From: a virus
UHGV virus genome: UHGV-1372148
Length of the DNA stretch: 44,945 nt
Direction: 5' to 3' (one strand)
A program made the position numbers and the translations under genes. Each line of letters begins with the position of its first letter. The stretch's first letter is position 1. The notes beneath the pieces are model-generated. The model saw nothing but the letters and a program-made list of their open reading frames with translations. It did no database searches and was not told where the DNA came from. This document shows, in pieces, positions 13,488-42,230 of the stretch.

Positions 13488-14573
13488 CTACCAGTTCTGC
13501 GCGTCGGTGCGGACGTAGATATTGCGGTACGCCGTGTCGAGGACGGGGATAGCGTCGGCCTGCCCGAGCGTTACCTCGGTCAGTGGCTCGATCGTGCCGT
13601 ACTTCTTTACCACGGTGTGGCCACGCTCTACGCGGATGACGCCATCGGTCACGTTCTCCTGCAGGAGGTCGTACTGCGTAGAGCCGAGTACCTCCTTCTC
13701 GGAGAGGATGATACGAGCGTCGGCGAAGGGGTTACCCGCGATGCTACTGCCGTCGGCGAACTCGCGCGTGATCGTTTGGTCGATTACGCGGATCTGCAGG
13801 CCGTTGAGCCAAGCCTGCTTCCCGAGCATCTTGTTCACCTCATCGATGTCTGGAGACTGCGCCACACCTACGGCGTTGAAGATGTAGTTCGAGCAAGCCT
13901 TGATGATCTGCTCGGAGGAGCTGATCTTGTAGAACTCGTCCATGTTCATAAAGATGAACTTCGGGTTGAGCCCCTTGTCCTTAGCCAGCTTTACGAACTT
14001 GCGCAGGTCGCCGATGATGTCAGCGGAGGAGGCGTTGCCCCAGTCGCTCGAGGTCTTCTGCTTCTGGAAGTCGTAGACGTCGTAGTCGAGGTCGTACTGG
14101 TTGGCGAACGTCGCGTTGTTCGTCGTCGTGAAGGAGAGCTTACCAGCGTTGGACGCCAGCGCCCACGCGATGTACTCAAGCTCCGACTGCACGCCGTTGA
14201 AGCAGAAGTCTACGTCTTCGCCCCAGTACTGAACGAGCTTCGTCGCGTCGGCGTCCTGCGCCATTGCCAGCGCTACCTGATAGTCCTTGATCTCGGAGCG
14301 GCCGAGTTCTCGGCTGATCGAGATAAAGGGGATGTCACCACGTGCACTCTCGAACGTAGGGCGGAGCTTACGGAGTGAGGTTGAGCCGTCGGCGTGGATG
14401 TCGGCGGCGACGTTGAGCTTAGCTGCCTGATTGGCGAGCGTCTTCCACGAGAAGCCGTTTACCTTCTTGATCGGGAAGTGCGTACCAAAGAGGAAGGGCT
14501 TAGCGTCGATGCCGTTCACGCGTGCCTGGACGATCTGCGCGTCGAGGCCTTCGATCATAGTTCCTTGTACCAT
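13488..14573 (-). CDS. Major capsid protein (HK97 fold).
   Basis: 361 aa. Position and sequence character fit (…DYDVYDF…, IRVIDQTITREF, GNPFADARIILSE…). Confidence 0.8.
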   Translation of the reverse strand: MVQGTMIEGLDAQIVQARVNGIDAKPFLFGTHFPIKKVNGFSWKTLANQAAKLNVAADIHADGSTSLRKLRPTFESARGDIPFISISRELGRSEIKDYQVALAMAQDADATKLVQYWGEDVDFCFNGVQSELEYIAWALASNAGKLSFTTTNNATFANQYDLDYDVYDFQKQKTSSDWGNASSADIIGDLRKFVKLAKDKGLNPKFIFMNMDEFYKISSSEQIIKACSNYIFNAVGVAQSPDIDEVNKMLGKQAWLNGLQIRVIDQTITREFADGSSIAGNPFADARIILSEKEVLGSTQYDLLQENVTDGVIRVERGHTVVKKYGTIEPLTEVTLGQADAIPVLDTAYRNIYVRTDAQNW

Positions 14574-14592
14574 ATCTTGATCTGTTTATTTG

Positions 14593-15159
14593 TTAGTAGT
14601 TCACGACGCCCGTAAGGCTCTTGCGGATGCACGAGGGGAGGGCGTGGCCAGTGGTGACGGCGATCACCCACGCGTCCACGATAAGGTTGCTCTTAGGCTC
14701 GATGCCGACCTTCTGCCCCGAGATAGCGACGGGCTGATACTTCAGCGCCGAGGCGTTCGTGCTCTCCTCCTTCGCTTCGACGAGGATAGCGCCCGTCTTC
14801 AGCTCGCCGAGGGCGGCCTTGATAGTGATAGTGTCGTAGTCTTTAGCCGTGTCGTCGATCTTAGAGATCTTCGTTGCGACCTTGGCCTCGTCGACCATCA
14901 CGACGTCGTCTACGCGGAAGTTGTGACCCTTCGCGATCTTGACGGACTTTTCCGTCGCGCCGACGTCACCCGCAACGCGGGCGATCTTGACGGCGTGGCA
15001 GACGCCATTCACGGGGGCACTGAGGGGCGTACCCTCGAGGAGGACGTCACCGCCCAGCTCCTTCGTGTCTACCGACACACCGCCGCGAATGTCCGCTACC
15101 TTATGCACGACGACGCGAGGGAAGTTGTCGTCGCGGCGTCTCTTTACGGTCATTGCCAT
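14593..15159 (-). CDS. Head decoration-like protein (occupies the SPP1 gp12 position).
   Basis: 188 aa between the scaffold and the MCP. Confidence 0.35.
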   Translation of the reverse strand: MAMTVKRRRDDNFPRVVVHKVADIRGGVSVDTKELGGDVLLEGTPLSAPVNGVCHAVKIARVAGDVGATEKSVKIAKGHNFRVDDVVMVDEAKVATKISKIDDTAKDYDTITIKAALGELKTGAILVEAKEESTNASALKYQPVAISGQKVGIEPKSNLIVDAWVIAVTTGHALPSCIRKSLTGVVNY

Positions 15160-15206
15160 AGTTAGTTTCGTTTTGGTTAATGGTTGGAAATTCTAATACT
15201 GCACAC

Positions 15207-15902
15207 TTAGAAGGGCTGCTCCCCGTCTGCGGGCTTCCCGCCTCGGTGGTTGATCGCTTCGATCTGCTCCTTCGTCAGCTCCTTCTGTGCGGCTGCCCCG
15301 CCGTGGTGAGCGCTGGGCGTCGAGAAGACTGCACCCTTGGCGGCGAACGCCTGCCCGATCTCCCCGACCTCTGCCGTTACGTCAGCCGAGAGCTTCGTGA
15401 ACTCGTCGTCGGAGAGCGTGTCGAGCGGGATGCGCTCGTAGCCCTTTCGCAGTGGCTCGGGGAGGTGGCCGTAGATCGCCTCGAGTGCTTGTCGTCGCCC
15501 CGTCGTCGTCCGTTCTGCGTCGCGTCTGTTCAGCTCGTTTTGGAGCGCCGCCACGCGCTCGGTGAGCGAGACTGCCCATGCGGGTACGCCTTCGTCCGCT
15601 TGTCCCTTGGGTGCGTTGTCGTTGCCGTTGCCCGTAGGCGCTGGCGGGGTGGTCGGCTTGCCCTCACGAAGCCCGTATTTTGCTTCGTAGTTCGTCACCG
15701 CGGTCGTCGATGCCTCGGTGGCGCGGCTGTCGCCGTAGCTCTCGATAACCTCGATGAGCTCGGGTGTAACTCCCTCGACTGCGGTCGTTACCTGCTCGGG
15801 CGTCGTGGCAGTCTTCGCCAGCTTGTCGGCTATCCTGCCCAAGATCACGGCACTACGTCCTGGGAACTTGGAGCGGAGTGCCTCGAGAATTTGCTCTTTC
15901 AT
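15207..15902 (-). CDS. Scaffolding protein.
   Basis: 231 aa, helical and charged, with a Pro/Thr-rich linker. It is the first gene of the late structural operon. Confidence 0.5.
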   Translation of the reverse strand: MKEQILEALRSKFPGRSAVILGRIADKLAKTATTPEQVTTAVEGVTPELIEVIESYGDSRATEASTTAVTNYEAKYGLREGKPTTPPAPTGNGNDNAPKGQADEGVPAWAVSLTERVAALQNELNRRDAERTTTGRRQALEAIYGHLPEPLRKGYERIPLDTLSDDEFTKLSADVTAEVGEIGQAFAAKGAVFSTPSAHHGGAAAQKELTKEQIEAINHRGGKPADGEQPF

Positions 15903-16065
15903 ACGTTGGATGATTAAAAAATTAAACCAAATGGTTTACTTCCACAAATGTACTCTTTTCGGGAATGCCTACGCCACTAAGTCGTTTGTATTGTGCGAAA
16001 TGCGTGTTTGTCTATGCGTATTAGGCGATCACCTATGCGCGCTATTTGAGTAAATAGTTCGCAGT

Positions 16066-16126
16066 AGTATTTGTATAATCAAAATATAGTACTACCTTTG
16101 CAGTAAAGATTTAACCAATCGGTTAA
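16066..16126 (+). promoter_or_regulatory. Bacteroidetes-type promoter for the plus-strand island, with an overlapping palindromic operator TTAACCAATCGGTTAA.
   Basis: TTTG at 16070-16073 and TAccTTTG at 16093-16100, 19 nt apart. The palindrome at 16111-16126 falls at about the +1 to +25 region. Confidence 0.45.
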
Positions 16127-16170
16127 ATCAAGATCGAACGGAATAGTAACTCAAAAAGCAACGACACGAA

Positions 16171-16455
16171 ATGGAACACATCGACGCCATTACCGCCGTA
16201 CTTCGCGCCATCGACGCTGGTCAGCGTCCTATCCTCCTCGAGAGCTGGACGGGCGTAAAGTACTATCTCTCCCCACTGACGCACGCCTTCATCATCGCCA
16301 AGCTCGTACACCTCGAGCAGGTCGAGTGCGCGCAACCTATCCCCGAGTGGGCGGGGACGTTCCCCGAGGACGGCGGGTATTACCACATCACGCTAAGCGG
16401 CCACGAGGGGCTTGTGCAGATCGCTATGCCCGCACCAATCACTAAGACGAAGTAA
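16171..16455 (+). CDS. Hypothetical protein (island gene 1).
   Basis: 94-aa ORF, the first gene after the promoter. Confidence 0.5.
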   Translation: MEHIDAITAVLRAIDAGQRPILLESWTGVKYYLSPLTHAFIIAKLVHLEQVECAQPIPEWAGTFPEDGGYYHITLSGHEGLVQIAMPAPITKTK

Positions 16456-16460
16456 CGGAT

Positions 16461-16922
16461 ATGAGACTACGAGACATTGACCCCGATATTATCGAGGGAG
16501 GCTGCGCGCTGGGCTTCGTCTACGACCTCCTCGAGCAGGTCGAAGGCATCGAGGATCTGTATAGCCGCGTCCGCACCGACGCGACCTATCGGACGTACTC
16601 GGCGGAGATACGCCAGTACCTACGTCAGTACCTCATCGCCACTATCCTACGCCCCTGCGCACACTCGAAGCTCAAACGCGGGCATCGCATCATAGCACAG
16701 CGCCTCGAGCGACGCGACCGCGTGGCCTTCGCCGCCTCTCTACGCGTCGACGCCGAGCAGGTCGTCTACGCCTCCGACTACGAGGAAGGCTCGACGGACG
16801 TCTATCTCGTCACGCAGTACAGCGACCGCGTCTGCCGTGGTATCCCCCTCCCCGAGGGCGCTGTACTGCAAAGCGTCGCCGCCCTTAACAACGTCACCTA
16901 CTACGCGCACAAAATCAAATAG
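16461..16922 (+). CDS. Hypothetical protein (island gene 2).
   Basis: 153-aa ORF with tight spacing to its neighbours. Confidence 0.5.
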   Translation: MRLRDIDPDIIEGGCALGFVYDLLEQVEGIEDLYSRVRTDATYRTYSAEIRQYLRQYLIATILRPCAHSKLKRGHRIIAQRLERRDRVAFAASLRVDAEQVVYASDYEEGSTDVYLVTQYSDRVCRGIPLPEGAVLQSVAALNNVTYYAHKIK

Positions 16923-16924
16923 CA

Positions 16925-17179
16925 ATGAAACTCTTACTCCTTGCGTCCCTCCTCTCTATCGTCTGCTCTTCCTGCAATAGCTCTCCGTACAGAAACGGGC
17001 GTGTCATCGGGAAGCACCTGCGAATGGAGGGACAAGACATCGCCTACGTGGTGGTGTTTTACAACGACTGGGTATTCCCAGGTGAGTATTACTCGGCAGT
17101 AGTCTCAAAGGAGGCTTACAACAGTACCCAAAAAGGCGACTATGTTGAGTTTGACGTGGAAGTCGGGAAGAAGAAATAA
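16925..17179 (+). CDS. Small secreted lipoprotein.
   Basis: Signal peptide MKLLLLASLLSIVCSSC with a lipobox-like Cys. Confidence 0.55.
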   Translation: MKLLLLASLLSIVCSSCNSSPYRNGRVIGKHLRMEGQDIAYVVVFYNDWVFPGEYYSAVVSKEAYNSTQKGDYVEFDVEVGKKK

Positions 17180-17196
17180 ATCAAATAGCAACGACT

Positions 17197-17805
17197 ATGA
17201 TATACGTACTTTACGGCGTAGACATGCTCAACCACTACGCTAAGAAATGCCACGCGTGGGCAGTAGCTAAAGGCTTTTATGATGAGCCTCACCCCGTCGG
17301 GCATCATCTGATGTTGGCTTTCGGAGAGCTTCACGAGGGTATCGAAGCCGACCGCATCGGGAAGTGGGCGAAGCTCGATCCAAACACGATAGACACGCTC
17401 CATCGTATAGAGGGTGCTATCTACATTCAAGAGTTCCTCCGCCTTGTCAAGGACACCGTGGAGGACGAGATCGCCGACGCAGTGATACGCCTGCTTGACC
17501 TGCTGGGGTGGTTACTCAAAACAAAGCGAACGACCGAGATCCTCAACGAGAACGACCTAAGTAAGGTATACGGCATCCTTGATACACCACGCCCTGGAGA
17601 GGAGTTAACTCTCCTCCTGCTACGCATAGTTGCGGACACATCAGGGTATTGGCGTTTGGGACTGCTCCGAGAAAAGGGCATCCTCTACGCCATTAAGTCC
17701 CTCGAACAGCTCTGCGACCACCTCGGCATCGATCTGATGGCGCACATCGACCTCAAGCTGAAATACAATGCCACACGCCCTGCGCTGCACGGCAAGAAAT
17801 ACTAA
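17197..17805 (+). CDS. MazG-like nucleoside triphosphate pyrophosphohydrolase.
   Basis: The acidic-residue pattern GELHEGIEADR ... VEDEIADAVIRLLDL matches the all-alpha NTP-PPase (MazG) EExxE / ExxD metal-binding motifs. Confidence 0.5.
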   Translation: MIYVLYGVDMLNHYAKKCHAWAVAKGFYDEPHPVGHHLMLAFGELHEGIEADRIGKWAKLDPNTIDTLHRIEGAIYIQEFLRLVKDTVEDEIADAVIRLLDLLGWLLKTKRTTEILNENDLSKVYGILDTPRPGEELTLLLLRIVADTSGYWRLGLLREKGILYAIKSLEQLCDHLGIDLMAHIDLKLKYNATRPALHGKKY

Positions 17806-17811
17806 GGAACT

Positions 17812-18282
17812 ATGACAACGGACAACATAATCGACCTGCTCATCATCGCCTGCGGTGGGCTATTTGTGTGGGCACTCGCAGCGACGCTCACGCTGTGGTA
17901 TGAGCGCAAGGAGCGAGAGCCAAAGGCAGCCACCGCAGAAGCGGAGAGCGTCACGCCAACCGAGATACCCGAGAATGACAAGGACTGGCACGTGCGCCAT
18001 GACTATGTAGAGTGGATGCGAACAGAGATAGTCAAGAACTTGGATGGTAGTCCCTTCTGCTGCGTGCGCATCGAGGATAGTGGCAAGGGTGATGCTCTAA
18101 ACCACGGAGAGGCGCACGCACTACTCCTGCCCTTCCTGCAGAAAGGCTACTACGCCTACCGAGAGCTAACAGGCTGGACGGGGAACAAGGTCACCCGCTT
18201 CCGAGTGGCAAAGCATCGAGACGCTGAGCCTACCGCTCTCGAGATCACCGAAGAGTTACTAACCAAGAATGTACAGCTATGA
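17812..18282 (+). CDS. Membrane-anchored hypothetical protein.
   Basis: N-terminal TM helix (IIDLLIIACGGLFVWALAATLTLWY). Confidence 0.5.
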   Translation: MTTDNIIDLLIIACGGLFVWALAATLTLWYERKEREPKAATAEAESVTPTEIPENDKDWHVRHDYVEWMRTEIVKNLDGSPFCCVRIEDSGKGDALNHGEAHALLLPFLQKGYYAYRELTGWTGNKVTRFRVAKHRDAEPTALEITEELLTKNVQL

Positions 18283-18911
18283 CTATGTCGATCGGAGCAT
18301 TCACCACCACCATCTTAGTGATCTGCGTTATCTCAATCGCGTTGGGCGCGTTCTTCTATTTCCGCTGTGTGTCTTTAGAGTGTGAGGTGGACGTAGTCCA
18401 AGAGTCAAAGGACGCCCTGCGGGAGAGCATGAGCAAAACGAACTACTACCTCCACCAGCAACTCGAGCGTGTGAAGGGAGAGAATGAAGCCCTCCGCACC
18501 CAGCTCCACCAGCTGAGGAAGGAGCAACAGAAGCAAGGCAACCAAATACACAAGGCTATGACCAAAGAACAAAAAGAGAGGCTGAGAGCGTGGTCACTCA
18601 ACCTGCTTGTCACCTATCGTATCGACTTCTTCAGAGGAGAAGTGCTATCGAGAGTGGTGAACTTCTTGAGCATGGGAGACCCCGACCGAATGAAGAAAGC
18701 GATAGAGGACTGTCGTAAAATCTTCGACATCGGCTTTGAGCCCGATCAGAAGGACTACACCGAGCTACTCAGAGAGCTACGGCAGATAGCAAAGGAAGTG
18801 CCTCTAAGCGACACCGCACAGAGCGCCATTACCTACGTCTTCGGGGGTGAGTGGGAGGAAGCGATAGAAGCCCTCGACAAGCTCAAGGGCGAACGCAACG
18901 AACAGAACTAA
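18279..18911 (+). CDS. Membrane-anchored coiled-coil protein.
   Basis: N-terminal TM helix followed by a long heptad-like region (LHQQLERVKGENEALRTQLHQLRKEQQKQ). The start overlaps the upstream stop. Confidence 0.5.
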   Translation: MTMSIGAFTTTILVICVISIALGAFFYFRCVSLECEVDVVQESKDALRESMSKTNYYLHQQLERVKGENEALRTQLHQLRKEQQKQGNQIHKAMTKEQKERLRAWSLNLLVTYRIDFFRGEVLSRVVNFLSMGDPDRMKKAIEDCRKIFDIGFEPDQKDYTELLRELRQIAKEVPLSDTAQSAITYVFGGEWEEAIEALDKLKGERNEQN

Positions 18912-18997
18912 CCACGAGTGCGCCCTGCTTGGGTCAAGCCCACTTTCACACACCTCCTTTCGTGGGAGCGGGGCGCACTCTAACCAAGCAACGAGCT

Positions 18998-19300
18998 ATG
19001 ACGCAGAAAACGACACCCACGCTAACATGGGATGAGAACGGAAAAGGACTACTAATAGGAACGGCCTTCCTCGACGACGGCAGTGTTGTGCAATACAGCT
19101 GTCGTAATAAGGGTGACGATGATAATCCGAAATGGGTACACTTTCGGATAGTATCCCGCTCAAGGAGTGAGGGTGACTTTGGTGGCGAGATTGAAATGGA
19201 CATAAAATTCAAGCTCGATGGTGGCGAGGATGCGCAAACGCGAATGCGCTCTATCCACCTATGCATGAAAGACCTTAGAGAATTAGTAAAGACGCTATGA
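18998..19300 (+). CDS. Hypothetical small protein.
   Basis: About 100 aa counted from the internal ATG. Preceded by an 86-bp structured spacer. Confidence 0.4.
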   Translation: MTQKTTPTLTWDENGKGLLIGTAFLDDGSVVQYSCRNKGDDDNPKWVHFRIVSRSRSEGDFGGEIEMDIKFKLDGGEDAQTRMRSIHLCMKDLRELVKTL

Positions 19301-19587
19301 CACGCTCTAATCAAGATATGGAAATGAAGTTCAACGGAGATATGCTTACGATAAAAGATAGCACAGGGCGACTATCGATACCTGTGGAGAAGGACGGAGA
19401 TTTCTACTTCTTCCCGAAGAAGAGTTACAACGGCTTGTGTATAGCAGTAGACGAGTCCTCCATATACTACTGCAAGGATGCGTCAGTAACCTCGACAACT
19501 GAGCTAACGGCTAACAACTTACTTCACGCAAAGAGGTCGCTTGTGACAAGAGTATTGCTAAACATAGTAGACAACTTAATCAAATGA
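19297..19587 (+). CDS. Hypothetical small protein.
   Basis: 96 aa with ATGA start/stop overlap. GC is lower than the genome average. Confidence 0.45.
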   Translation: MTRSNQDMEMKFNGDMLTIKDSTGRLSIPVEKDGDFYFFPKKSYNGLCIAVDESSIYYCKDASVTSTTELTANNLLHAKRSLVTRVLLNIVDNLIK

Positions 19588-19862
19588 CACGCGAAGAAGT
19601 AAAAGCCCAGCTTGCGAAATGCCCGCTGGAGTGGGAGGAAGATATCGAGGGAATACTTACCGCTAAGGTATGCGCTCTTGATAGAAATGTCTGTATAACC
19701 TACCGCTTAATCGAAGATGACGTGTATATAAAAGCAGCTAATGACAGTGGTCGCTTCGTTGGCGAGTTCCTCGGTGTGGAAGGTGGAGAGAAGGCGCTCA
19801 AAGCCATAGCCGAAGACCACCGCCTCCTCTTCGCCTGCCGACTGCTCGGCATTAACGACTAA
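19584..19862 (+). CDS. Hypothetical small protein.
   Basis: 92 aa with ATGA overlap. Confidence 0.45.
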   Translation: MTREEVKAQLAKCPLEWEEDIEGILTAKVCALDRNVCITYRLIEDDVYIKAANDSGRFVGEFLGVEGGEKALKAIAEDHRLLFACRLLGIND

Positions 19863-19876
19863 TACAGACAAACGAT

Positions 19877-20449
19877 ATGAAGCTATTATTTTTCGACCTC
19901 GAGACGACGGGGACAAACCCAGCACGCCACGGCATACATCAGATTAGCGGCATCGTCGAGATCGACGGCGTCGAGCAGGAACGCTTCGACTTCAAGGTGC
20001 GCCCAAACCCAAAGGCCGAGATCCTCGACGAGGCTCTCGCCGTCGGTGGCGTCACCCGTGAGGAGATAGACGCCTATCCTCCGATGGAGGACGTGTACTG
20101 CAAGCTTGTAGCCCTGCTTTCGCGCTATGTAAGCAAGTATAACAAGACGGATAAGTTCTTCCTCGTTGGCTACAACAACGCCTCCTTTGATAACCAGTTC
20201 CTGCGGGGCTTCTTCCTGCAAAACGGGGACAACTACTTCGGCTCGTGGTTTTGGTCGAACTCCGTCGACGTGATGGTGCTTGCGTCGCAGTACCTACTCG
20301 CCGAGCGTCCGCTGATGCCGAACTTCAAGCTCTCGACCGTTGCCGCACAGCTCGGCGTCGTGGTATCTGAGGACAAGCTCCACGATGCACTCTACGACGT
20401 CGATCTCACGCGCGACGCTTACCACATAATGATAGACGACGAATTATGA
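19877..20449 (+). CDS. DEDDh 3'-5' exonuclease (DnaQ / RNase T / T4 DexA-like).
   Basis: Exo I motif FFDLETTG, Exo II motif VGYNNASFD and Exo III motif HDALYDVD (H-x4-D), in a protein of about 190 aa. Confidence 0.7.
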   Translation: MKLLFFDLETTGTNPARHGIHQISGIVEIDGVEQERFDFKVRPNPKAEILDEALAVGGVTREEIDAYPPMEDVYCKLVALLSRYVSKYNKTDKFFLVGYNNASFDNQFLRGFFLQNGDNYFGSWFWSNSVDVMVLASQYLLAERPLMPNFKLSTVAAQLGVVVSEDKLHDALYDVDLTRDAYHIMIDDEL

Positions 20450-20694
20450 TCAAAGACGATACTACCTACGCGTACGAGGTGCGCTTTCACGAAGCCCCCG
20501 AGGGACACAAGGAGCGCTCGCACTACTTCTTCTCGCTGGCTGCTATCTTCGAACACTTCACGCCGTCGGAGGTGGGCTGCACGGTGCAGACGTTCTACCG
20601 CGTGAAGCTGACCGAGGGAAACAAATACGAGGGGCGTCGGTGTGCCGTTCGCCGTGTGCCGATCTACCACAAGAAGCAGCGGGCGAGAGCATAA
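20446..20694 (+). CDS. Hypothetical small basic protein.
   Basis: 82 aa, overlapping the exonuclease stop (ATGA). Confidence 0.4.
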   Translation: MIKDDTTYAYEVRFHEAPEGHKERSHYFFSLAAIFEHFTPSEVGCTVQTFYRVKLTEGNKYEGRRCAVRRVPIYHKKQRARA

Positions 20695-20714
20695 CGACCA
20701 TACTACAGAATAAG

Positions 20715-20753
20715 CCGAGGGGCGGACGTTGCAGTGTGCAGCGCTCGCCCCTC
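20715..20753. terminator. Bidirectional stem-loop terminator between convergent genes.
   Basis: CGAGGGGCG-N21-CGCCCCTCG, a 9-bp GC stem. Confidence 0.45.
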
Positions 20754-20776
20754 GTCGTCTGTGCGTGTGGTGCTTG

Positions 20777-21883
20777 TTACGTTGTGTAGCCCTTGTTGTC
20801 ACGGATGAAATAGGGAAGGGATGCCCCGCCGTCGATACGTCCCTTGTTCTCGGCGAGCCACGTCTTGAAGCCCTCGGGGACGTCGCCCACGGCGTTAACG
20901 CTCCGCCCGTCGGTCGGCTCGCCTCGGAGTAACTTCTGCGTGTCGGCGGCCATTTCCTCGGGCGTCTTAAGTATCGGCGTAGTGTAGCATCGGCAGTTGG
21001 GGTGCCATCCCGTAAACTTAAAGTCCTTAGGGTACTTGCCGACGAGGTCGTCGCACATGCACTTGAAGGGCTTGCCGTTGAGGGTGTGATTGCCCGACAG
21101 ATGCACCTCGACGCCGACGACGAAGTCGAGCGCCTGCTGTCGTTCGTGGTCGGCCGCTCGGTAGGCTATGTTCGTCTCCGTGGCGGCGAGGCGGAGGGCG
21201 TTCTTGTACGACGAGCGATACACTCCCTGCCCTGGGTGGTAGGCCTTCGCACGCGCCGATAGTCGGAGCTGTCCGTGTTCGTCACGCACTCGTCGGAATA
21301 GCTTGTTAGGCTCGCGTAGGAAGCCACGCAGGGATCGGGAGAGTTCGTCGGCGGACTTACCCGCACGTATACCAACGTCCAGCCCCAGCTCGATCTCGGC
21401 CTTAAACTGGTCGGTATATCGCCATACGCGGTCACTAAGCCCCAGCCCCTGCTCCTTGCGCTTCACGAACGCCTCGCGGGCGTCCTCGTTGTTGCTTAGG
21501 AGTATGTGCTTTCGCTCCTCGGGCATCGTCTCGAGGCTCTTGCCGTAGACGCGTCTCACGAGGGCGTCGGTCTTGTTATTCGCCAGCGTCCACTCGGTGC
21601 GCACGCCCTGCTCGATGATACCCTGCATACGCTTCTGCAGGCCTGCCATAACGCCCTCGATGCGCTTCTTTGCCGCGGGGTGCTTGTCGAAGGTGAAGAT
21701 CTCCCCCTCGGGAGGCTTTACGCTGTGGATGCTGACGGCCACCGCGACCGCCTCGTATATGGCTTTATCGTACGCCCCCGAGATCATACGTGAGTAGGCC
21801 TCGAGGTGGAGGCGGTGCAGGGCTTCGTAGTCGAGGCCTGCCGTGCGTCGGCGTCGGCGCGGTGTTATGAGCGTCTTTGCCAT
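20777..21883 (-). CDS. Head morphogenesis protein (SPP1 gp7 / Mu F family) with a C-terminal Cys cluster.
   Basis: 368 aa, downstream of the portal. The C-terminus carries CMCDD...HPNCRC. Confidence 0.65.
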   Translation of the reverse strand: MAKTLITPRRRRRTAGLDYEALHRLHLEAYSRMISGAYDKAIYEAVAVAVSIHSVKPPEGEIFTFDKHPAAKKRIEGVMAGLQKRMQGIIEQGVRTEWTLANNKTDALVRRVYGKSLETMPEERKHILLSNNEDAREAFVKRKEQGLGLSDRVWRYTDQFKAEIELGLDVGIRAGKSADELSRSLRGFLREPNKLFRRVRDEHGQLRLSARAKAYHPGQGVYRSSYKNALRLAATETNIAYRAADHERQQALDFVVGVEVHLSGNHTLNGKPFKCMCDDLVGKYPKDFKFTGWHPNCRCYTTPILKTPEEMAADTQKLLRGEPTDGRSVNAVGDVPEGFKTWLAENKGRIDGGASLPYFIRDNKGYTT

Positions 21884-21892
21884 TGTCTGTCG

Positions 21893-22123
21893 TTAGTCCT
21901 TGCGTTGCGTGAAGTGCGGGCAGGCCTCCCTCGAGAGGAGATCGAGGAAGCGCCCGCCGTGCTTGTTGTACTTACATCGCCCGAGGGTTGGGCGTCCGTC
22001 GACGGCCGAGGGGTAGGCGAGATCGTGGATGAGTGCGCAACCTCGGCACTGCCCGCGTGAGCCTTCCCCGTCGCCCGTGACGGCCTTTCGCCTCGTGGCT
22101 GGGGTGTTGTTACGCTTCGCCAC
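21893..22123 (-). CDS. Small Cys-rich (zinc-ribbon-like) protein.
   Basis: 76 aa with CRGC...C...C. It overlaps the portal 3' end by 14 bp. Confidence 0.35.
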   Translation of the reverse strand: MAKRNNTPATRRKAVTGDGEGSRGQCRGCALIHDLAYPSAVDGRPTLGRCKYNKHGGRFLDLLSREACPHFTQRKD

Positions 22124-23525
22124 CGATAGCGCCCTCTAAGGGGTTAAACACGTCCCCCTGCGACTGCTCGGCTATCTCGCGCAGTGTCTGATCGACGTCC
22201 TCGGAGTGACCGAGCGCCTCGATCGCCTCGCGCTGCGACATAATAGGGAGGCCACCGCTCGCCGTGATTAGCATGTTGATCTGTTCCTGCTGGTCGCCTA
22301 TAGAGAAGGGCGTTATCTTCGTCTCGACGATTAGCGCGTCGATAGCGTCGGTGTATGCGGGGAGAGCGCTCTTGAGGAAGGCCTTTACGACGTTAAGCTC
22401 GCGGTCGAAGAACTCGAGGAGGCGGCCGCTCTCGTCCGTGACCTTCATCTGCGCGTCGATGAACAGCTGCTTGCGGCTCTCGCCCGAGAGTGCCTGCTGG
22501 CTCATCTTCTCGTACGACCAGTCGGGGAGCTGTAACTGGGTGAAGAAGAGCGAGCGGAGGTTATCGACAAAGAACTTGAGGTTCTCGACGGCCTGCTCCC
22601 ACGTCACGTACTCGGCGCGTGCGCCCGAGGGGTACTGCATCACCGAGCGGAACTCCTTATCTTGGCTCTTCTCGTCGCCGTAGGAGATCACCTCGTCGGC
22701 CATCACGATAAACAGCGGCTTCGAGTTCTTTCGGAGGTAGTTGCCGTTGCGTGATAGCGCCATTTCGATCTCGTAGACGGTCTCCGACGTGTTCTCCCAA
22801 ATAGGCGTAGGGCGGTACATATACACGGCGGGGATCTTCCCGAGTGTGGTAGCTTCGCGCTCTACCTCCGTCCACTTGCCCTCTCCGCCGTCGCTGTATC
22901 GCACGTGCAGGCCGTCGGTGTAGGCGTCGAAGTAGTTAATCTTCGCCTTGCCGACCTTGCGGGCGTAGCCCACCGAGAGCGCCACGAGGTCGCCGTACTC
23001 GTCGAAGAGCGGGTACAACGCATCGCCGAGCATCGGTGAGAAGTTGCGGCTGCGAAATTTCAGCCTACTATCGAAGCCGTAGACGTTGTTAGGCGCTTCG
23101 GTGGCGTACCAAAGTGTCAGCACCTCGCACCCTGCGAAGAGCATGTTGAGGCGCTCGATATTGAGCGTGTCGACGCGGTTACGCAGGAGGATCGCCTCGA
23201 GGTACTGCGCTACCTCCTTCTGTCGTTCGTCGGCGGGCTTGTAGATACGCTTGACGGGGATGCCGACGCACAGCTCCGTCATACGCTTAACTGCGAGGCG
23301 CTGGAGGTCGAGCGCCACGCGCGTAACCTTCTCGATACCCTCCTTGCTGACGACGTCGGGGTATTGGGTCTTATCCATCACGGGGTGGTACTTCGGATCA
23401 TACTGCCCCTCGAGGTTTTTCTTGCCCGCCCACGCTGGCACCTCGACGGCCTTCTGTTTGAGGGCGGTGAGCTTGTCCTCGACGGAGACGGCGGCGTCGT
23501 TGAGGAGGTCGTTAATCTGTGACAT
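22110..23525 (-). CDS. Portal protein (SPP1 gp6-like).
   Basis: 471 aa, immediately downstream of the large terminase. Confidence 0.8.
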   Translation of the reverse strand: MSQINDLLNDAAVSVEDKLTALKQKAVEVPAWAGKKNLEGQYDPKYHPVMDKTQYPDVVSKEGIEKVTRVALDLQRLAVKRMTELCVGIPVKRIYKPADERQKEVAQYLEAILLRNRVDTLNIERLNMLFAGCEVLTLWYATEAPNNVYGFDSRLKFRSRNFSPMLGDALYPLFDEYGDLVALSVGYARKVGKAKINYFDAYTDGLHVRYSDGGEGKWTEVEREATTLGKIPAVYMYRPTPIWENTSETVYEIEMALSRNGNYLRKNSKPLFIVMADEVISYGDEKSQDKEFRSVMQYPSGARAEYVTWEQAVENLKFFVDNLRSLFFTQLQLPDWSYEKMSQQALSGESRKQLFIDAQMKVTDESGRLLEFFDRELNVVKAFLKSALPAYTDAIDALIVETKITPFSIGDQQEQINMLITASGGLPIMSQREAIEALGHSEDVDQTLREIAEQSQGDVFNPLEGAIGGEA

Positions 23526-25794: not shown

Positions 25795-26730
25795 TCAGTC
25801 GTCCTTATGCCCAGCAACCTTATTCTCGTTGGTGAATGGGAAGTCTTCCTGATACCTATCCCACGCAATATTGTCGTGTTCAGCCCTGCCTCGAATTATA
25901 CACGGTCCGAGGTATTTATAGTTAATACGATGGTGTATTCTACCACCGTTTTTGGGCTGGTACTCAGCTTTTATCGCCGACGGGAACTGGATCACCGTCA
26001 CAAGAGCCTTGTTAAGCAGCTTGCACTCGTTATATAGATCTGTTAGGCCTCCGCTCTGCGTTGCCGACTGCACCTGCTGTAAAACGATGGAGTGCTGTGC
26101 CGTACCCGTAAACAGACCCTCGTTTATTATACCTGTGAATAGACTTGTATCGTCATCCTGCACACCTCTTTCACCCCTGTATATGTATGGAAGGAGGTAG
26201 AATGTTGTATTCATCACCTTTCGTGTGAATATCGGGTATTGATAGCCACCGATGAAGTCGCCCGTCTGTGGATAGCCGAACACCCCAATGTGCCTCTTCC
26301 GCATTAAGTCCTCAGCCTTGTTGAATGCCCGTCTGACAAGATCTAAGTCACGGATCGTTCGCCTCATCATAAACGAGGCAAAATACTGAGTGTCATCATC
26401 CATTACGACGTAGAAGTCGATGCCTATTGACTCGGCGTAGTCTTGAAACATATTGCGTGCTTGCCCTGCACTACGACGAGACACAGACGCCCTATGTACG
26501 TAGTCATACCTCCTGCGTGCCTCCTCCATGTTGAATACGTGGACGTTGAAGCCGTATTTAGCAGCCTCGTCTCTGTATTCGTCCTCATCGCCTGCTTGGT
26601 CGTCTATAAACACGGTGACAAGCGACATATTCCACCCAGCCTTATGAAGGAAGTAGACGGTCTTTATATTCCTTGGTCTGTGGTAGCTCGGGATAAACAC
26701 CCGACACATCTGGCTGCTATCCCCTATCAT
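25795..26730 (-). CDS. Putative GT-A-type glycosyltransferase (DxD motif), in a low-GC island.
   Basis: 311 aa carrying FYVVMDDDTQY and TVFIDDQAGDED. Local GC is visibly lower (about 47 %) than the flanks (about 62 %). Confidence 0.4.
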   Translation of the reverse strand: MIGDSSQMCRVFIPSYHRPRNIKTVYFLHKAGWNMSLVTVFIDDQAGDEDEYRDEAAKYGFNVHVFNMEEARRRYDYVHRASVSRRSAGQARNMFQDYAESIGIDFYVVMDDDTQYFASFMMRRTIRDLDLVRRAFNKAEDLMRKRHIGVFGYPQTGDFIGGYQYPIFTRKVMNTTFYLLPYIYRGERGVQDDDTSLFTGIINEGLFTGTAQHSIVLQQVQSATQSGGLTDLYNECKLLNKALVTVIQFPSAIKAEYQPKNGGRIHHRINYKYLGPCIIRGRAEHDNIAWDRYQEDFPFTNENKVAGHKDD

Positions 26731-36804: not shown

Positions 36805-37653
36805 ATGTCTAATAATCAAAGGCTTGCGCTGATTTACGAGGCGCTGAAAAAATCTCAGAAAGTGCGCAATCAGTCGCACTTTGCGAGCCTCGTCGGGGAG
36901 AAAAGCAGGGGCAATCTGTCGAATTACCTCTCAGGATCTAAGCCTCTCGGCGATGACCTTGTAAAACGTTATGTTGTATCTCTCTCGGATGCTATGCCCG
37001 AGTTGTCTCTCGACTGGTTAAGGACTGGCGAGGGTGATATGGTACGCGCGTACCCCGCGCTCGCACCCGTAGAGGACAACCCAGGGGCGTCGCTCCCCGA
37101 TATAGGACGACGCACCGACGTATGGGTGGGGAAGGACGACCGCGTCTATTGGACGGAAGCCATACAAGTAGGAGACGAGGAGGACTACCAGCGTGCGACG
37201 CAGGAGGGGGTGAAGCTCATCCCCGAGTTCGCCGAGGCCTTCCGCGGTGGCACGACGGGCGAGGCCGAGGAGCTGCGCACCGTAGACACCTATTGGGGAC
37301 TGCCCGACGTAGACGGAAATATGGTAGTACCTATCCGCGGAGACTCTATGGCACCTCGCTATCCTGCTGGCTGTCGCGTCGTCCTCAAGCCCTATCCCTT
37401 CAATCCTCGCCGCCCTTTGCTCCTGCCCTTTGGTGAGGTCTTTGCCGTGGCCGTGAGGCAGGAGGACGGCTATCCTCCGACGCACTACCTCAAGAAGCTA
37501 CACCGCCACCCCGACAAAGCGAAGGAGAACTACTACTATATCGCTCGGAGCTTTAACAAGGAGTACGAGGACTTCGAGATACCTATCAATGATATATGCT
37601 TCCTCTCGGCGGTCGTCGCTAAGATAGACCTCGAGCATACGTTCACGTTCTAA
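36805..37653 (+). CDS. CI-like repressor (N-terminal HTH plus C-terminal S24 LexA-type peptidase).
   Basis: PIRGDSMAPRYPAGCRVVLK carries the S24 Ser nucleophile motif. N-terminal HTH ends with LDWLRTGEG. Confidence 0.75.
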   Translation: MSNNQRLALIYEALKKSQKVRNQSHFASLVGEKSRGNLSNYLSGSKPLGDDLVKRYVVSLSDAMPELSLDWLRTGEGDMVRAYPALAPVEDNPGASLPDIGRRTDVWVGKDDRVYWTEAIQVGDEEDYQRATQEGVKLIPEFAEAFRGGTTGEAEELRTVDTYWGLPDVDGNMVVPIRGDSMAPRYPAGCRVVLKPYPFNPRRPLLLPFGEVFAVAVRQEDGYPPTHYLKKLHRHPDKAKENYYYIARSFNKEYEDFEIPINDICFLSAVVAKIDLEHTFTF

Positions 37654-39273: not shown

Positions 39274-39409
39274 AAAAAAAACTTTTCCCAAATTTTGGTA
39301 GTACACAAAAATGTATTATCTTTGTAGTGTGAAAGGGGAACAACGAAGCCCCATCCACAAGATCGAACTATAAGTAACAACTAAAAGAGTAAACGAAAAT
39401 GGAAACGAA
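39274..39409 (+). repeat. Copy A of the ~130-bp duplicated promoter / 5'-leader / start-codon cassette.
   Basis: About 95 % identical to 41715-41848. Contains TTTG (39294-39297) and TAtcTTTG (39317-39324) 19 nt apart, a GGGG-N10-CCCC hairpin, then ATGGAAACGAA. Confidence 0.8.
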
Positions 39410-39896
39410 GAAGATCACCCTCGAAGGCATCGAATTTTACGAAGACCGCTACAGCGGCAATCTTGTAGCATACGACAAGATCGAAGGCGTAGACGACATT
39501 GACGACGCTAAGCGACGTATCGAAGCCCTCCTTTGCTCCTACATCAAGGAGTACCCTTACTTCGGCACTTGGAGCATCAAGATGGACACCAAGGACGGCC
39601 ACACTGTAGAGCTGCGCTGGTCGTGCGACAGCGTCGAAGAGTACGACGAGTTCATTACGACGTTCGTAGACAACGAACGCGTGTACGACAACAACCAATC
39701 AAACTACCTCATAAAGGCGTACGAGATCGGCGACGCAAAGTGGACGCTCGCTTCTACCGACGAGGAGATCGGCGAGATTAGCGAGGCGTGGTTTAAGGGC
39801 CACGTTGAGGAGGTCATCGAGCGATACCCCGAAGAGTTCACCGACGAAGAGAAGGCTCGCGCCGAGGTGGTGAAACCCCTCCTCGCCGAGTACTAA
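39399..39896 (+). CDS. Highly acidic small protein (candidate DNA-mimic / anti-restriction protein).
   Basis: 165 aa, strongly D/E-rich. It is driven by repeat copy A and ends in a GC hairpin plus T-tract terminator. Confidence 0.55.
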   Translation: METKKITLEGIEFYEDRYSGNLVAYDKIEGVDDIDDAKRRIEALLCSYIKEYPYFGTWSIKMDTKDGHTVELRWSCDSVEEYDEFITTFVDNERVYDNNQSNYLIKAYEIGDAKWTLASTDEEIGEISEAWFKGHVEEVIERYPEEFTDEEKARAEVVKPLLAEY

Positions 39897-41388: not shown

Positions 41389-41714
41389 CGTATTTTGCGT
41401 ATCTTTGCCGTTAGATGTTGCTCCAGTTGTTGCGCATCTGTTCGATCTGATAGGGGAGGCGCCGCCGTGTGCTTCCCCTATCTCTTCCCCTCCTCCCCGT
41501 GTAAACCATTTCGTTAACTCCAACGATATGGTTTAAAAGATCAAGGCCTCGACGCTGTTACACGCCGAGGCCTCTCTCTCATCTATCTACCTGCTAAAAC
41601 CCTGCGACTTAGGCGCTCCCGCGCATCCATCGCTGTATCAGTTTAATGAAGAACCGAAGCAAAGGTAGCTATACATTTCCATTTAACCAAATGGTTAAAT
41701 TTTCGGGTGGGCGG

Positions 41715-41848
41715 ACAAAAACTTTCGGTGAATTTTGGTAGTACACAAAAATGTATTATCTTTGTAGTGTGAAAGGGGAACAACGAAGCCCCGCCACAAG
41801 ATCGAACTACAAGTAACAACTAAAAGAGTAAACGAAAATGGAAACGAA
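41715..41848 (+). repeat. Copy B of the duplicated promoter / 5'-leader cassette.
   Basis: See copy A. The TTAACCAAATGGTTAA palindrome lies just upstream at 41683-41698. Confidence 0.8.
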
Positions 41849-42230
41849 AATGAACATCGAGGCTTTCGGGCTGACGTTTAAGAGAATTGACGACAAGAGC
41901 GGTGTCCGATACCAAGCTAAGGTGTATAAGGTAGCCGAGAGCGTAAATGATGTTAAGGGGGCGCTCCTCCACGTAATGTGTAAGGCGATAGATGCAGAAC
42001 CAATGGTTGTATCACATCCTTACGGCATATCAGTTCAGATCTCAGACGAGTACGACGGCTACCTCTACCCAATCATAGCGATATGCAAGCCTGCCGAAGA
42101 CGTCGCTGAGTGGCTCGGGAATTATTACCACGAAGTTGCCCGAGTGCTGGGGGACGGTACCGAGGTCCGATACGGTGTTCCCTACCGAACGGGGCTACCT
42201 TGCGAGGAGTACTGGGAAGACTGGGACTAA
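41838..42230 (+). CDS. Acidic small protein (second cassette cargo; lower GC).
   Basis: 130 aa starting METK from the shared cassette. Followed by the terminator CGCCCCGACT-N10-AGTCGGGGCG. Confidence 0.5.
   Translation: METKMNIEAFGLTFKRIDDKSGVRYQAKVYKVAESVNDVKGALLHVMCKAIDAEPMVVSHPYGISVQISDEYDGYLYPIIAICKPAEDVAEWLGNYYHEVARVLGDGTEVRYGVPYRTGLPCEEYWEDWD

Follow-up and report, generated by a model that had tools for sequence, protein, structure and literature searches.

A probable opposite-strand accessory operon between the MuF and scaffold-position genes of a temperate Bacteroidales phage, a variant of known phage morons and MuF toxin-immunity loci

The window analysed here, UHGV virus genome UHGV-1372148, is a stretch of 44,945 nucleotides (nt) that corresponds to the complete, circularly permuted genome of a temperate phage, about 45 kb long with a GC content of about 60%. 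The phage is a circular temperate Bacteroidales siphophage. Its head genes are carried by the minus strand: a terS-like gene, terL, the portal gene and MuF follow each other from 25769 down to 20777, and a gene in the scaffold position, p188, the major capsid protein (MCP) gene and the tail genes from 15902 downwards. Between MuF and the scaffold-position gene, eleven consecutive open reading frames (ORFs), g01 to g11, occupy the plus strand at 16171-20694, as claimed in an earlier interpretation of the letters alone, called below the sequence-only reading. The island formed by these genes is a variant of known phage morons or accessory hotspots and of MuF toxin-immunity loci, and not a new kind of system. 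We propose that it is probably an accessory operon kept throughout the lineage, separately promoted and renewed by the swapping of cassettes, which would be expressed early and controlled by a repressor. The eleven genes and their two neighbours, with protein lengths in amino acids (aa) and GC3 for GC at third codon positions, are the following.

15207-15902, minus strand: scaffold-position gene, matching phrog_5824, a profile without assigned function; syntenic in relatives, the name "scaffold" referring to position only
16171-16455, plus strand: g01, 94 aa, acidic, GC3 0.77 (native-like); 90%-identity cluster of 176 members, present in the close clade
16461-16922, plus strand: g02, 153 aa, GC3 0.78; nearly all homologues at least 79% identical
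16925-17179, plus strand: g03, 84 aa, signal- or lipoprotein-like MKLLLLASLLSIVCSSC, with a signal-like N-terminus, Cys14 and Cys17
17197-17805, plus strand: g04, 202 aa, probable member of the MazG-like all-alpha NTP pyrophosphohydrolase superfamily (phrog_9236 "pyrophosphatase", 8e-35)
17812-18282, plus strand: g05, 156 aa, N-terminal transmembrane (TM) helix (about residues 6-24, from hydrophobicity) and a domain without family match
18279-18911, plus strand: g06, 210 aa, N-terminal TM helix (about residues 8-26, from hydrophobicity) and a coiled coil
18998-19300, plus strand: g07, 100 aa, GC 0.475, no family match; its DNA is covered by about two relatives on average, e.g. L082; cluster of 8
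19297-19587, plus strand: g08, 96 aa, lowest GC (0.426), with only two non-significant PHROG matches (E > 0.04)
19584-19862, plus strand: g09, 92 aa, homologues in six other loci
19877-20449, plus strand: g10, 190 aa, stand-alone DnaQ-like DEDDh 3'-5' exonuclease, from family profile and catalytic residues
20446-20694, plus strand: g11, 82 aa, basic (pI 9.4), one family common across the lineage
20777-21883, minus strand: MuF, short (368 aa), without C-terminal toxin domain, matching only positions 14-367 of the 794-position phrog_35295

The genes are tightly packed, and the ATGA overlaps pointed out by the sequence-only reading are present in four pairs (g05/g06, g07/g08, g08/g09 and g10/g11). 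The same reading had named homology of the small proteins to structural proteins as evidence against cargo, and none of the eleven island proteins gives a structural PHROG or Pfam match. The lipoprotein and two TM proteins that it announced are recovered as g03, which is signal- or lipoprotein-like, and as g05 and g06, whose N-terminal segments reach a mean Kyte-Doolittle value, over 19 residues, of 2.35 and 2.38, respectively. Homologues of g05, 48-73% identical, occur in the related loci L007 and L012. No match was obtained in Pfam, PHROG, NCBIfam or PADLOC for g01, g02, g05, g07 and g09; the AlphaFold2 model of g02 (pLDDT 47) is not usable. None of the island proteins is named to equivalog level by NCBIfam, and the search of the island for defence proteins with PADLOC returned only generic DEDDh and coiled-coil matches. 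A small-protein family, F13, which by eye resembles g09, recurs in the blocks of relatives, sometimes twice.

The family matches of g06 are weak, extend over the TM helix and the coiled coil, and include the Rz-like spanin profile phrog_89 (2.5e-5). A two-component spanin made of g06 and g03 was considered and rejected: the phrog_89 match and a LysB match at 0.018, far below the cut-off, cover the TM helix and coil only, the genes are not adjacent (g03 lies two genes away), and the lysis genes are located elsewhere (604-1494). In L002, a 96-aa protein (15121-15411, minus strand) combines an N-terminal membrane helix like that of g05 with a coiled coil and C-terminus like those of g06, which suggests a deletion or recombination between two neighbouring membrane-protein genes.

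The MuF protein was used to gather 80 related viral contigs and 39 genomic loci (individual loci are cited by their L numbers), and the occupancy of the slot was counted over the 43 viral contigs that hold both MuF and the scaffold-position gene. The MuF-scaffold gap, of 1.5-8 kb, contains at least three opposite-strand ORFs in 33 of these 43 contigs, down to about 45% MuF identity, and two at most in the other 10. The sequence-only reading had asked whether related phages lack the insertion at this junction; the ten sparsely filled gaps answer in part that they do, the 33 others that they do not, and since some relatives do without the block, head assembly does not require it. A total of 135 protein clusters was counted over the 43 blocks, and even where g01 is identical the phages differ in their core genes. 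From these comparisons the slot appears to be ancestral and its cargo fluid. Besides the genes mentioned below, the blocks of relatives contain an HD_4 hydrolase, an ADP-ribosylglycohydrolase (ARH), a dsRNA-binding domain and a DUF7659 protein. In the clade with about 60% MuF identity (L013-L035), the block starts with an 83-aa protein, a 379-385-aa protein without Pfam match and a DUF7659 protein, after which comes g11.

The composition of the island divides it into a frame and a core. At the DNA level, g01, g02, g10 and g11 are about 90% identical to their counterparts in close relatives, like the flanking structural genes, and their GC3 of 0.76-0.78 approaches the backbone value of about 0.8, to be compared with 0.65-0.69 for g03-g06 and 0.50-0.54 for g07-g09. 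The GC-poor part noticed by the sequence-only reading belongs to this core: GC amounts to 0.475 in g07, 0.426 in g08, 0.509 in g09 and 0.494 in g03, against 0.59-0.64 in the structural genes. Among the loci, the DNA of g03 is found only in L087, which is the same phage, that of g07 and g08 in one or two loci, and that of g08 is essentially unique to the window phage. The ends g01, g02, g10 and g11 therefore look native, and the core g03-g09 looks swapped in.

The exchange of g03 can be followed at its borders. Close relatives (L081-L088) carry a C5 DNA methyltransferase (PF00145) in the slot where the window has g03, and a 17-nt motif, AAATCAAATAGCAAYGA, present in three copies in the window, all within the island, against 0.02 expected, lies on both sides of g03:

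16912-16928, plus strand: cassette junction repeat AAATCAAATAGCAATGA, left of g03
17178-17194, plus strand: cassette junction repeat AAATCAAATAGCAACGA, right of g03

In the relatives, g02 and the C5 methyltransferase gene both end in ATCAAATAG, which supplies their last codons, so that the repeat on the right of g03 looks like a remnant of the methyltransferase that was replaced. The exchange of cassettes at such short boundary repeats would explain the mosaic.

The island and the scaffold/MCP operon diverge from a common control region, whose elements are listed here.

15903-16170, no strand: divergent control region, AT-rich (GC 0.37), 268 bp, between the scaffold-like gene and g01; conserved in close relatives
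15923-15938, no strand: palindrome 1, TAAACCAAATGGTTTA, about 20 nt upstream of the ATG of the scaffold-like gene; equivalent site in most relatives
15945-15952, minus strand: candidate -7 box for the scaffold/MCP operon, TACATTTG, read from the sequence
16070-16100, plus strand: predicted island promoter by consensus match, -33 TTTG (16070-16073), 19-nt spacer, -7 TACCTTTG (16093-16100)
16089-16095, no strand: GTACTAC box (GTAnTAC palindrome, 7 bp), candidate repressor site, overlapping the island -7 element
16111-16126, no strand: palindrome 2, TTAACCAATCGGTTAA, 10 nt downstream of the island -7 box, which can fold as a 9-bp RNA stem
16129-16173, plus strand: leader common to the promoters P39294 and P41734, CAAGATCGAAC ... 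AGTAAC ... ACGAAATGGA, from alignment

Bacteroides promoters follow the Bacteroidota -33/-7 consensus. The strict pattern TTTG-N18-21-TAnnTTTG occurs at 7 sites in the window, against 0.10 expected; one is the island promoter, the other six are all located at 36.7-43.0 kb, in the lysogeny, integrase and cargo region, and none lies in the structural modules. The island site is conserved in L002, L003, L009, L011 and L012, and the architecture of the control region is still recognisable in relatives with 45-60% MuF identity. The Bacteroidetes promoter attributed to the island by the sequence-only reading is thus upheld as a predicted one, and the island shares with morons, on the evidence of its sequence, a promoter independent of the surrounding operon. 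The sigma-70 promoter scan gave nothing, as expected for a Bacteroidota host. On the scaffold side, CCACAAATGTACT at the candidate -7 box is conserved in close relatives, and takes the form CACAAAG(A/G)TAAT in the clade with 45-60% MuF identity; no -33 element matching this candidate box was found.

Two palindromes of the form TWAACY-N4-RGTTWA accompany the divergent promoters. The stricter form TWAACC-N4-GGTTWA is present four times in the window, against 0.13 expected, and in 28 of 41 loci, with MuF identities as low as 45%, equivalent paired sites recur at these two places, where 1.4 loci would be expected. Their interpretation as RNA hairpins was rejected, the pairing not being kept in the more distant clade: there the right arm degenerates while the left arm is retained, which favours a DNA site bound by a protein. 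The two other copies in the window (41502-41517 and 41683-41698) are situated downstream of the integrase gene, about 181 bp apart, a spacing similar to the 188 bp of the island/scaffold pair; one of them overlaps the -33 of the 41660 (minus-strand) promoter, about 36 bp upstream of P41734. In the clade with about 60% MuF identity (L013-L035), pairs of another palindrome, GTGATTA-N5-TAATCAC, are seen at the two divergent promoters.

The second element is the GTAnTAC box. The window contains 16 copies, against 7.7 expected, and six of them fall inside the seven promoter windows, where 0.2 would be expected. Three copies (36731, 36743 and 36759) lie at the CI/Cro-like switch, and P39294 (39298), P41734 (41738) and the island promoter (16089) have one each. 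The CI-like repressor (36805-37653) was identified through phrog_4 (3.4e-16), and the triplication of the box between its gene and the leftward early operon makes it the likely operator of the immunity switch. The sequence-only reading had proposed a longer palindromic operator, GTAGTA...TACTAC, over the island promoter; as a conserved operator it was rejected because relatives do not keep it, and what stands of it is the right arm, which is the promoter-enriched GTACTAC box. The island also shares the leader elements CAAGATCGAAC, AGTAAC and ACGAAAATGGA with P39294 and P41734, which flank the integrase gene and precede two small genes without assigned function. These two promoters belong to a near-identical promoter-leader repeat of about 115 bp (39284-39403 and 41724-41842, plus strand), on either side of the integrase region, which precedes orf165 (39399-39896) and orf130 (41838-42230); the island promoter-leader is a third, more diverged copy.

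Two structured elements were found, one inside the island and one at its end.

18916-18980, plus strand: internal hairpin in the g06-g07 spacer, with arms of 14 nt, 93% complementary, and CTAACCA direct repeats on either side
20716-20754, no strand: GC-rich hairpin, candidate bidirectional terminator, in the 82-bp convergent g11/MuF spacer (20695-20776)

The spacer at 20695-20776 folds strongly on either strand: the plus strand reaches -48.7 kcal/mol (z -6.3), the minus strand -39.6 kcal/mol (z -4.6). Of the bidirectional terminator claimed by the sequence-only reading, the hairpin therefore stands, and its terminator role, plausible from the fold, is putative. The g06-g07 spacer (18908-18997) folds at -37.4 kcal/mol on the plus strand (z -3.5; z -1.3 on the minus strand) and is common to 6-7 relatives; it could represent an attenuator within the operon, a site of RNA processing or a small palindromic insertion.

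Of the two enzymes named by the sequence-only reading, the DEDDh exonuclease holds up at the level of the superfamily, and the MazG-like protein as a probable member of its own. The g10 protein matches PF00929 (RNase_T) with 50.3 bits, for a cut-off of 24 (5e-13), phrog_192 at 5.5e-38 and, in the PDB, ExoI at 3.5e-4. Its catalytic set is complete (D7 and E9 in FFDLETTG, D105 in SFDNQ, H169 and D174 in HDALYD), and the motif stretches align with the corresponding ones of E. coli ExoI. By these sequence criteria g10 is a member of the DEDDh exonuclease superfamily; it reaches no NCBIfam equivalog cut-off and no subfamily could be assigned. Its homologues share 87-99% identity with it within the close clade, and the one in L064 shares 71%. 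The evidence on g04 is indirect but consistent. Besides the phrog_9236 match, 10 of 101 sampled members of its family, which counts 2420 representatives, match the MazG-like PF12643, and the eight marginal PDB matches of the family profile are all MazG or DCTPP1 (dCTP pyrophosphatases). The MazG motif is defined as E-x-x-E ... E-x-x-D, and in g04 the residues E44, E47, E50, D90, E91 and D94 of such a conserved acidic, metal-binding motif are each at least 90% conserved in the alignment of 101 family members.

The relatives also tell where the two enzymes could come from. In L064, whose MuF is a 1203-aa Bxa-like protein, four consecutive genes of the packaging strand lie upstream of the terminase genes: those of a C5 methyltransferase, an exonuclease and a MazG-like protein, and an ORF resembling single-stranded DNA-binding protein (SSB-like). 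Two of the four, the methyltransferase gene and the SSB-like ORF, were identified by reading the sequence and not by a family tool. The exonuclease is the 71% homologue of g10, the adjacent MazG-like protein is 34% identical to g04, and L074 has the exonuclease in a similar place. Close relatives of the window phage likewise have the methyltransferase next to the MazG-like gene; in the window, the exonuclease and the MazG-like gene sit in the head-gene slot on the opposite strand, separated by five unrelated genes, and the methyltransferase is replaced by g03. In this clade g04 and g10 thus look like ordinary early DNA-metabolism genes that were moved into the head-gene slot. The sequence-only reading had stated that finding its eleven genes as an ordinary early module in relatives would speak against it, and L064 shows this for the exonuclease and the MazG-like gene, not for all eleven.

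The model we favour for the island starts from its anatomy, its conservation, its mosaicism and the superfamilies of its two enzymes, and proposes from there a timing, a regulation and biological roles. The host RNA polymerase would read the operon from the Bacteroidota -33/-7 promoter, which faces away from the scaffold/MCP operon, and transcription would end at the strong hairpin shared convergently with MuF. The native frame would consist of g01 and g02 at the start and of g10 and g11 at the end, enclosing the exchangeable core g03-g09, whose cassettes would be swapped by recombination at short gene-boundary repeats. The paralogy of promoter and leader with the units flanking the integrase gene, together with the GTAnTAC box, suggests that the operon would be repressed during lysogeny and come on early, once the phage infects or is induced. 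The two enzymes, the MazG-like pyrophosphohydrolase and the exonuclease of DnaQ type, which we infer to be common phage helpers of DNA and nucleotide metabolism, would have been relocated into the slot, and the membrane, lipoprotein-like and small products would be a strain-variable conflict cargo acting, for example, in exclusion or counter-defence. The accessory cargo in a separate transcription unit that the sequence-only reading had recognised is consistent with the predicted promoter, the hairpin, the non-structural content and a core that varies between relatives.

Several observations weigh against this model. Nine of the eleven island proteins are without supported function, g06 having only its weak coiled-coil matches, and g04 has no direct match in Pfam, NCBIfam or PDB, the PDB searches with the single sequence and with an 8-sequence profile giving nothing or only E 0.38. 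The hairpin at 20716-20754 has no clear U tract, and an E. coli-style terminator scan did not list it and gave only weak intragenic calls. The near-universal g11 could point to a core rather than an accessory role of the operon. The weakest link is the early as opposed to lysogenic timing, which is deduced from one 7-bp box and from the promoter paralogy; the long-range palindrome is not conserved in relatives, and the paralogous promoters adjoin the integrase gene, where genes active in the prophage are classically located; this would argue for lysogenic expression.

Among the alternatives, the one that survives best, and that we retain as a tentative possibility, is a strict counter-defence or host-takeover operon, several of whose products would disarm the immunity of the host directly. 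The MazG-like protein would attack nucleotide pools or signals, the exonuclease would degrade either signalling oligonucleotides or nucleic acids used in defence, and the small proteins would serve as inhibitors. Such an operon would fit the richness of the relatives' blocks in conflict functions (C5 DNA methyltransferase, HD_4, ADP-ribosylglycohydrolase, dsRNA-binding domain), the high turnover of genes with small acidic proteins, and a host-type promoter independent of the late genes. On the other hand, no homology to a characterised anti-defence protein was seen in the Pfam, PHROG, NCBIfam and PADLOC scans, the PADLOC matches being generic, a search of the literature brought up no established anti-defence role of a phage MazG, and in L064 the exonuclease and MazG-like genes stand beside the SSB-like ORF, upstream of the terminase genes, as ordinary genes of DNA metabolism. 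The genes without assigned function may have anti-defence or exclusion roles.

It is rather doubtful that the island is a moron for lysogenic conversion or superinfection exclusion, expressed from the prophage, with g03, g05 and g06 altering the envelope against incoming phages. Three products are predicted in the envelope, the unit has its own promoter and hairpin, and the same promoter-leader drives the two small genes that flank the integrase gene, a position typical of prophage expression. The -7 element is nevertheless overlapped by a box of the type triplicated at the repressor switch, and neither the cytoplasmic g04 and g10 nor the native-looking frame fits an exclusion role. Moreover, g03 is a very recent replacement of the methyltransferase, so that an envelope function is not what defines the slot.

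The g11 family invites another explanation, a regulatory operon whose payload would be g11, acting at TWAACY-N4-RGTTWA to time the scaffold/capsid operon, the other genes being passenger cargo. This is unlikely in our view, in spite of several features that agree with it. The g11 family is the only widespread one, found in 29 of the 43 blocks and the sole family common across clades, and its product is small and basic (pI 9.4); each of the divergent promoters is flanked by the palindrome pair, which persists down to 45% MuF identity; and a Porphyromonas phage described below, phage005b, has an XRE-type helix-turn-helix (HTH) gene at the equivalent position. That HTH gene is not homologous to g11. 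In the protein database, the family comprises 625 clusters at 90% identity; a Pfam domain is present in 0 of the 120 listed, and one named member is from Phocaeicola vulgatus. Homologues lie opposite MuF in prophages of Bacteroides, Prevotella, Muribaculaceae and Alistipes.

A link with MuF toxins, which the sequence-only reading had not raised, comes from the relatives. In many of them MuF is extended by a toxin-type domain, or followed by one on the same strand (glutamine deamidase PF15644; Bxa-like ADP-ribosyltransferase); such extra domains on or after MuF occur in L013-L035, L042/L043, L053-L055, L064 and L082-L086. Close relatives have a 501-aa MuF with an LPD3 domain instead of a toxin, and its MuF part is 92% DNA-identical to the short MuF of the window, which indicates that the gain or loss of toxins is recent in the lineage. 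Clusters of MuF polymorphic toxins and immunity genes have been described in temperate phages (Jamet 2017, PMC5576092). Experiments on the Bxa toxin showed that it is neutralised by BAH (an ARH) and by Bsi, not by BACSTE_RS09440, and the authors raised the idea of poly-immunity loci (PMC11699363).

The island could accordingly be a MuF-toxin immunity islet, protecting the producer or the lysogens of rivals, with orphan immunity genes in the present phage. It would agree with these published results that the MuF-nearest genes of relatives encode, beside Bxa-like toxins, an ADP-ribosylglycohydrolase of the BAH type (L042, L043 and L057) and, beside a further toxin-position ORF, an HD_4 hydrolase; in L042/L043, the MuF-proximal opposite-strand genes are g11, the ARH gene and a small partner, F17, and then comes the toxin. 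In the window, the 368-aa MuF corresponds to the N-terminal half of long PHROG profiles, and the 82-bp spacer to g11 contains no ORF. The Pfam, PHROG and NCBIfam scans detected no resemblance of the island proteins to BAH, Bsi or Aph1, and no ADP_ribosyl_GH or HD match among the eleven. The neighbour of MuF, g11, occurs irrespective of the toxin type and even beside a toxin-less MuF, which makes it unlikely to be an immunity protein. From synteny, we infer that g11 is the counterpart of BACSTE_RS09440, the third small ORF of the Bxa locus; the small ORF beside BAH and Bsi that failed as an immunity protein would then belong to the toxin-independent g11 family. Most of the block is, besides, far from MuF, and the published MuF toxin loci consist of one to three small ORFs beside the toxin and not of an operon that is driven by a promoter, measures 4-8 kb and extends to the scaffold gene. 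With a short MuF and no immunity-like protein, the immunity-islet explanation has a low probability for the window phage, despite the toxin domains and the BAH-like and HD_4 genes that its relatives carry at the MuF-proximal end of the block.

Finally, a recent, phage-specific insertion of foreign DNA into a contiguous head operon, which was the framing of the sequence-only reading, is highly improbable in spite of the lower GC of the core genes and of the 10 relatives among 43 with few or no opposite-strand ORFs in the gap, since the block is present in the 33 others and the slot, the control region with its promoter, and the native-like end genes are conserved across the lineage; it holds only for single cassettes such as g03, g07 and g08.

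Our preferred interpretation, the lineage-kept accessory operon, can be placed beside systems already known. Phage morons and accessory-gene hotspots were defined for lambdoid phages as independent units. The island resembles them in being a unit with a predicted promoter and a stem-loop between virion genes, atypical in composition in its core and backbone-like at its ends, variable among relatives and dispensable for the neighbouring module. It differs in being an operon of eleven genes whose slot, control region and end genes are conserved in the lineage, so that only the core cassettes are moron-like: the block as a whole is not absent where a moron would be, whereas g03, g07 and g08 occur in zero to two other loci. 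The relatives of the lineage include the Bxa prophage of Bacteroides stercoris and Porphyromonas phage005. In Porphyromonas phage phage005b_ATCC49417 (PP754928), the ParB-like, glycosyltransferase, terS, terL, portal and MuF genes are likewise followed by an opposite-strand block, of about 6.7 kb, after which a plus-strand gene comes next. Its MuF is only 44% identical, however, and its cargo (ADP-ribosylglycohydrolase, XRE HTH, integrase-like, Bro/ANT anti-repressor and lectin-fold proteins) has no match to the window genes by annotation or Pfam.

A more far-reaching proposal, which we put forward as speculation unlikely to hold in full, is that g01, g02, g03 and g05-g09 would form a reservoir of uncharacterised proteins for conflicts between phages and with the host (anti-defence, exclusion, orphan immunity against MuF toxins of rivals), shuffled at boundary repeats and switched on early through the operator pair TWAACY-N4-RGTTWA, which would also gate the scaffold/capsid operon, possibly via g11, a protein that matches no known fold. 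The human gut abounds in temperate Bacteroidales phages, whose accessory genes are little known. The known site of MuF toxins and immunity genes now appears as one end of a larger, separately promoted, lineage-wide operon with varying genes, and the slot as a defined place to look for genes of counter-defence, exclusion and DNA modification in gut phages. The locus yields a compact set of about nine uncharacterised proteins, the widespread g11 family and a conserved pair of regulatory motifs. Its value lies in this defined hunting ground, family and operator pair, and not in a demonstrated new mechanism.

As to the rest of the genome, the same proteins are deposited as metagenome-assembled Caudoviricetes sp. 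(DAV29136-DAV29168), and a near-identical contig of 45,064 bp exists. A megablast of 14000-23000 against GenBank phages gave zero matches, a genome scan found no prophage above 58% MuF identity, and the homologues of the integrase are confined to phage-sized or shorter contigs. Neither the Rfam nor the tRNA scan of the window gave a match. The genome codes for a Bacteroidota-type tyrosine integrase, the CI-like repressor, RecT, YqaJ and a primase-helicase, as well as for an endolysin with holin (604-1494); no DNA polymerase was recognised among the proteins of the window. It also codes for a TET-associated glycosyltransferase (PF20691, 9e-15; 25795-26730, minus strand), located in a low-GC patch (0.49) with the terS-like gene on one side and the ParB-like gene on the other. 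The window ORFs scanned included no recognisable TET/JBP or C5 methyltransferase; the closest relatives have their C5 methyltransferase inside the island. Porphyromonas phage005b carries a glucosyltransferase at the position equivalent to that of the glycosyltransferase of the window.

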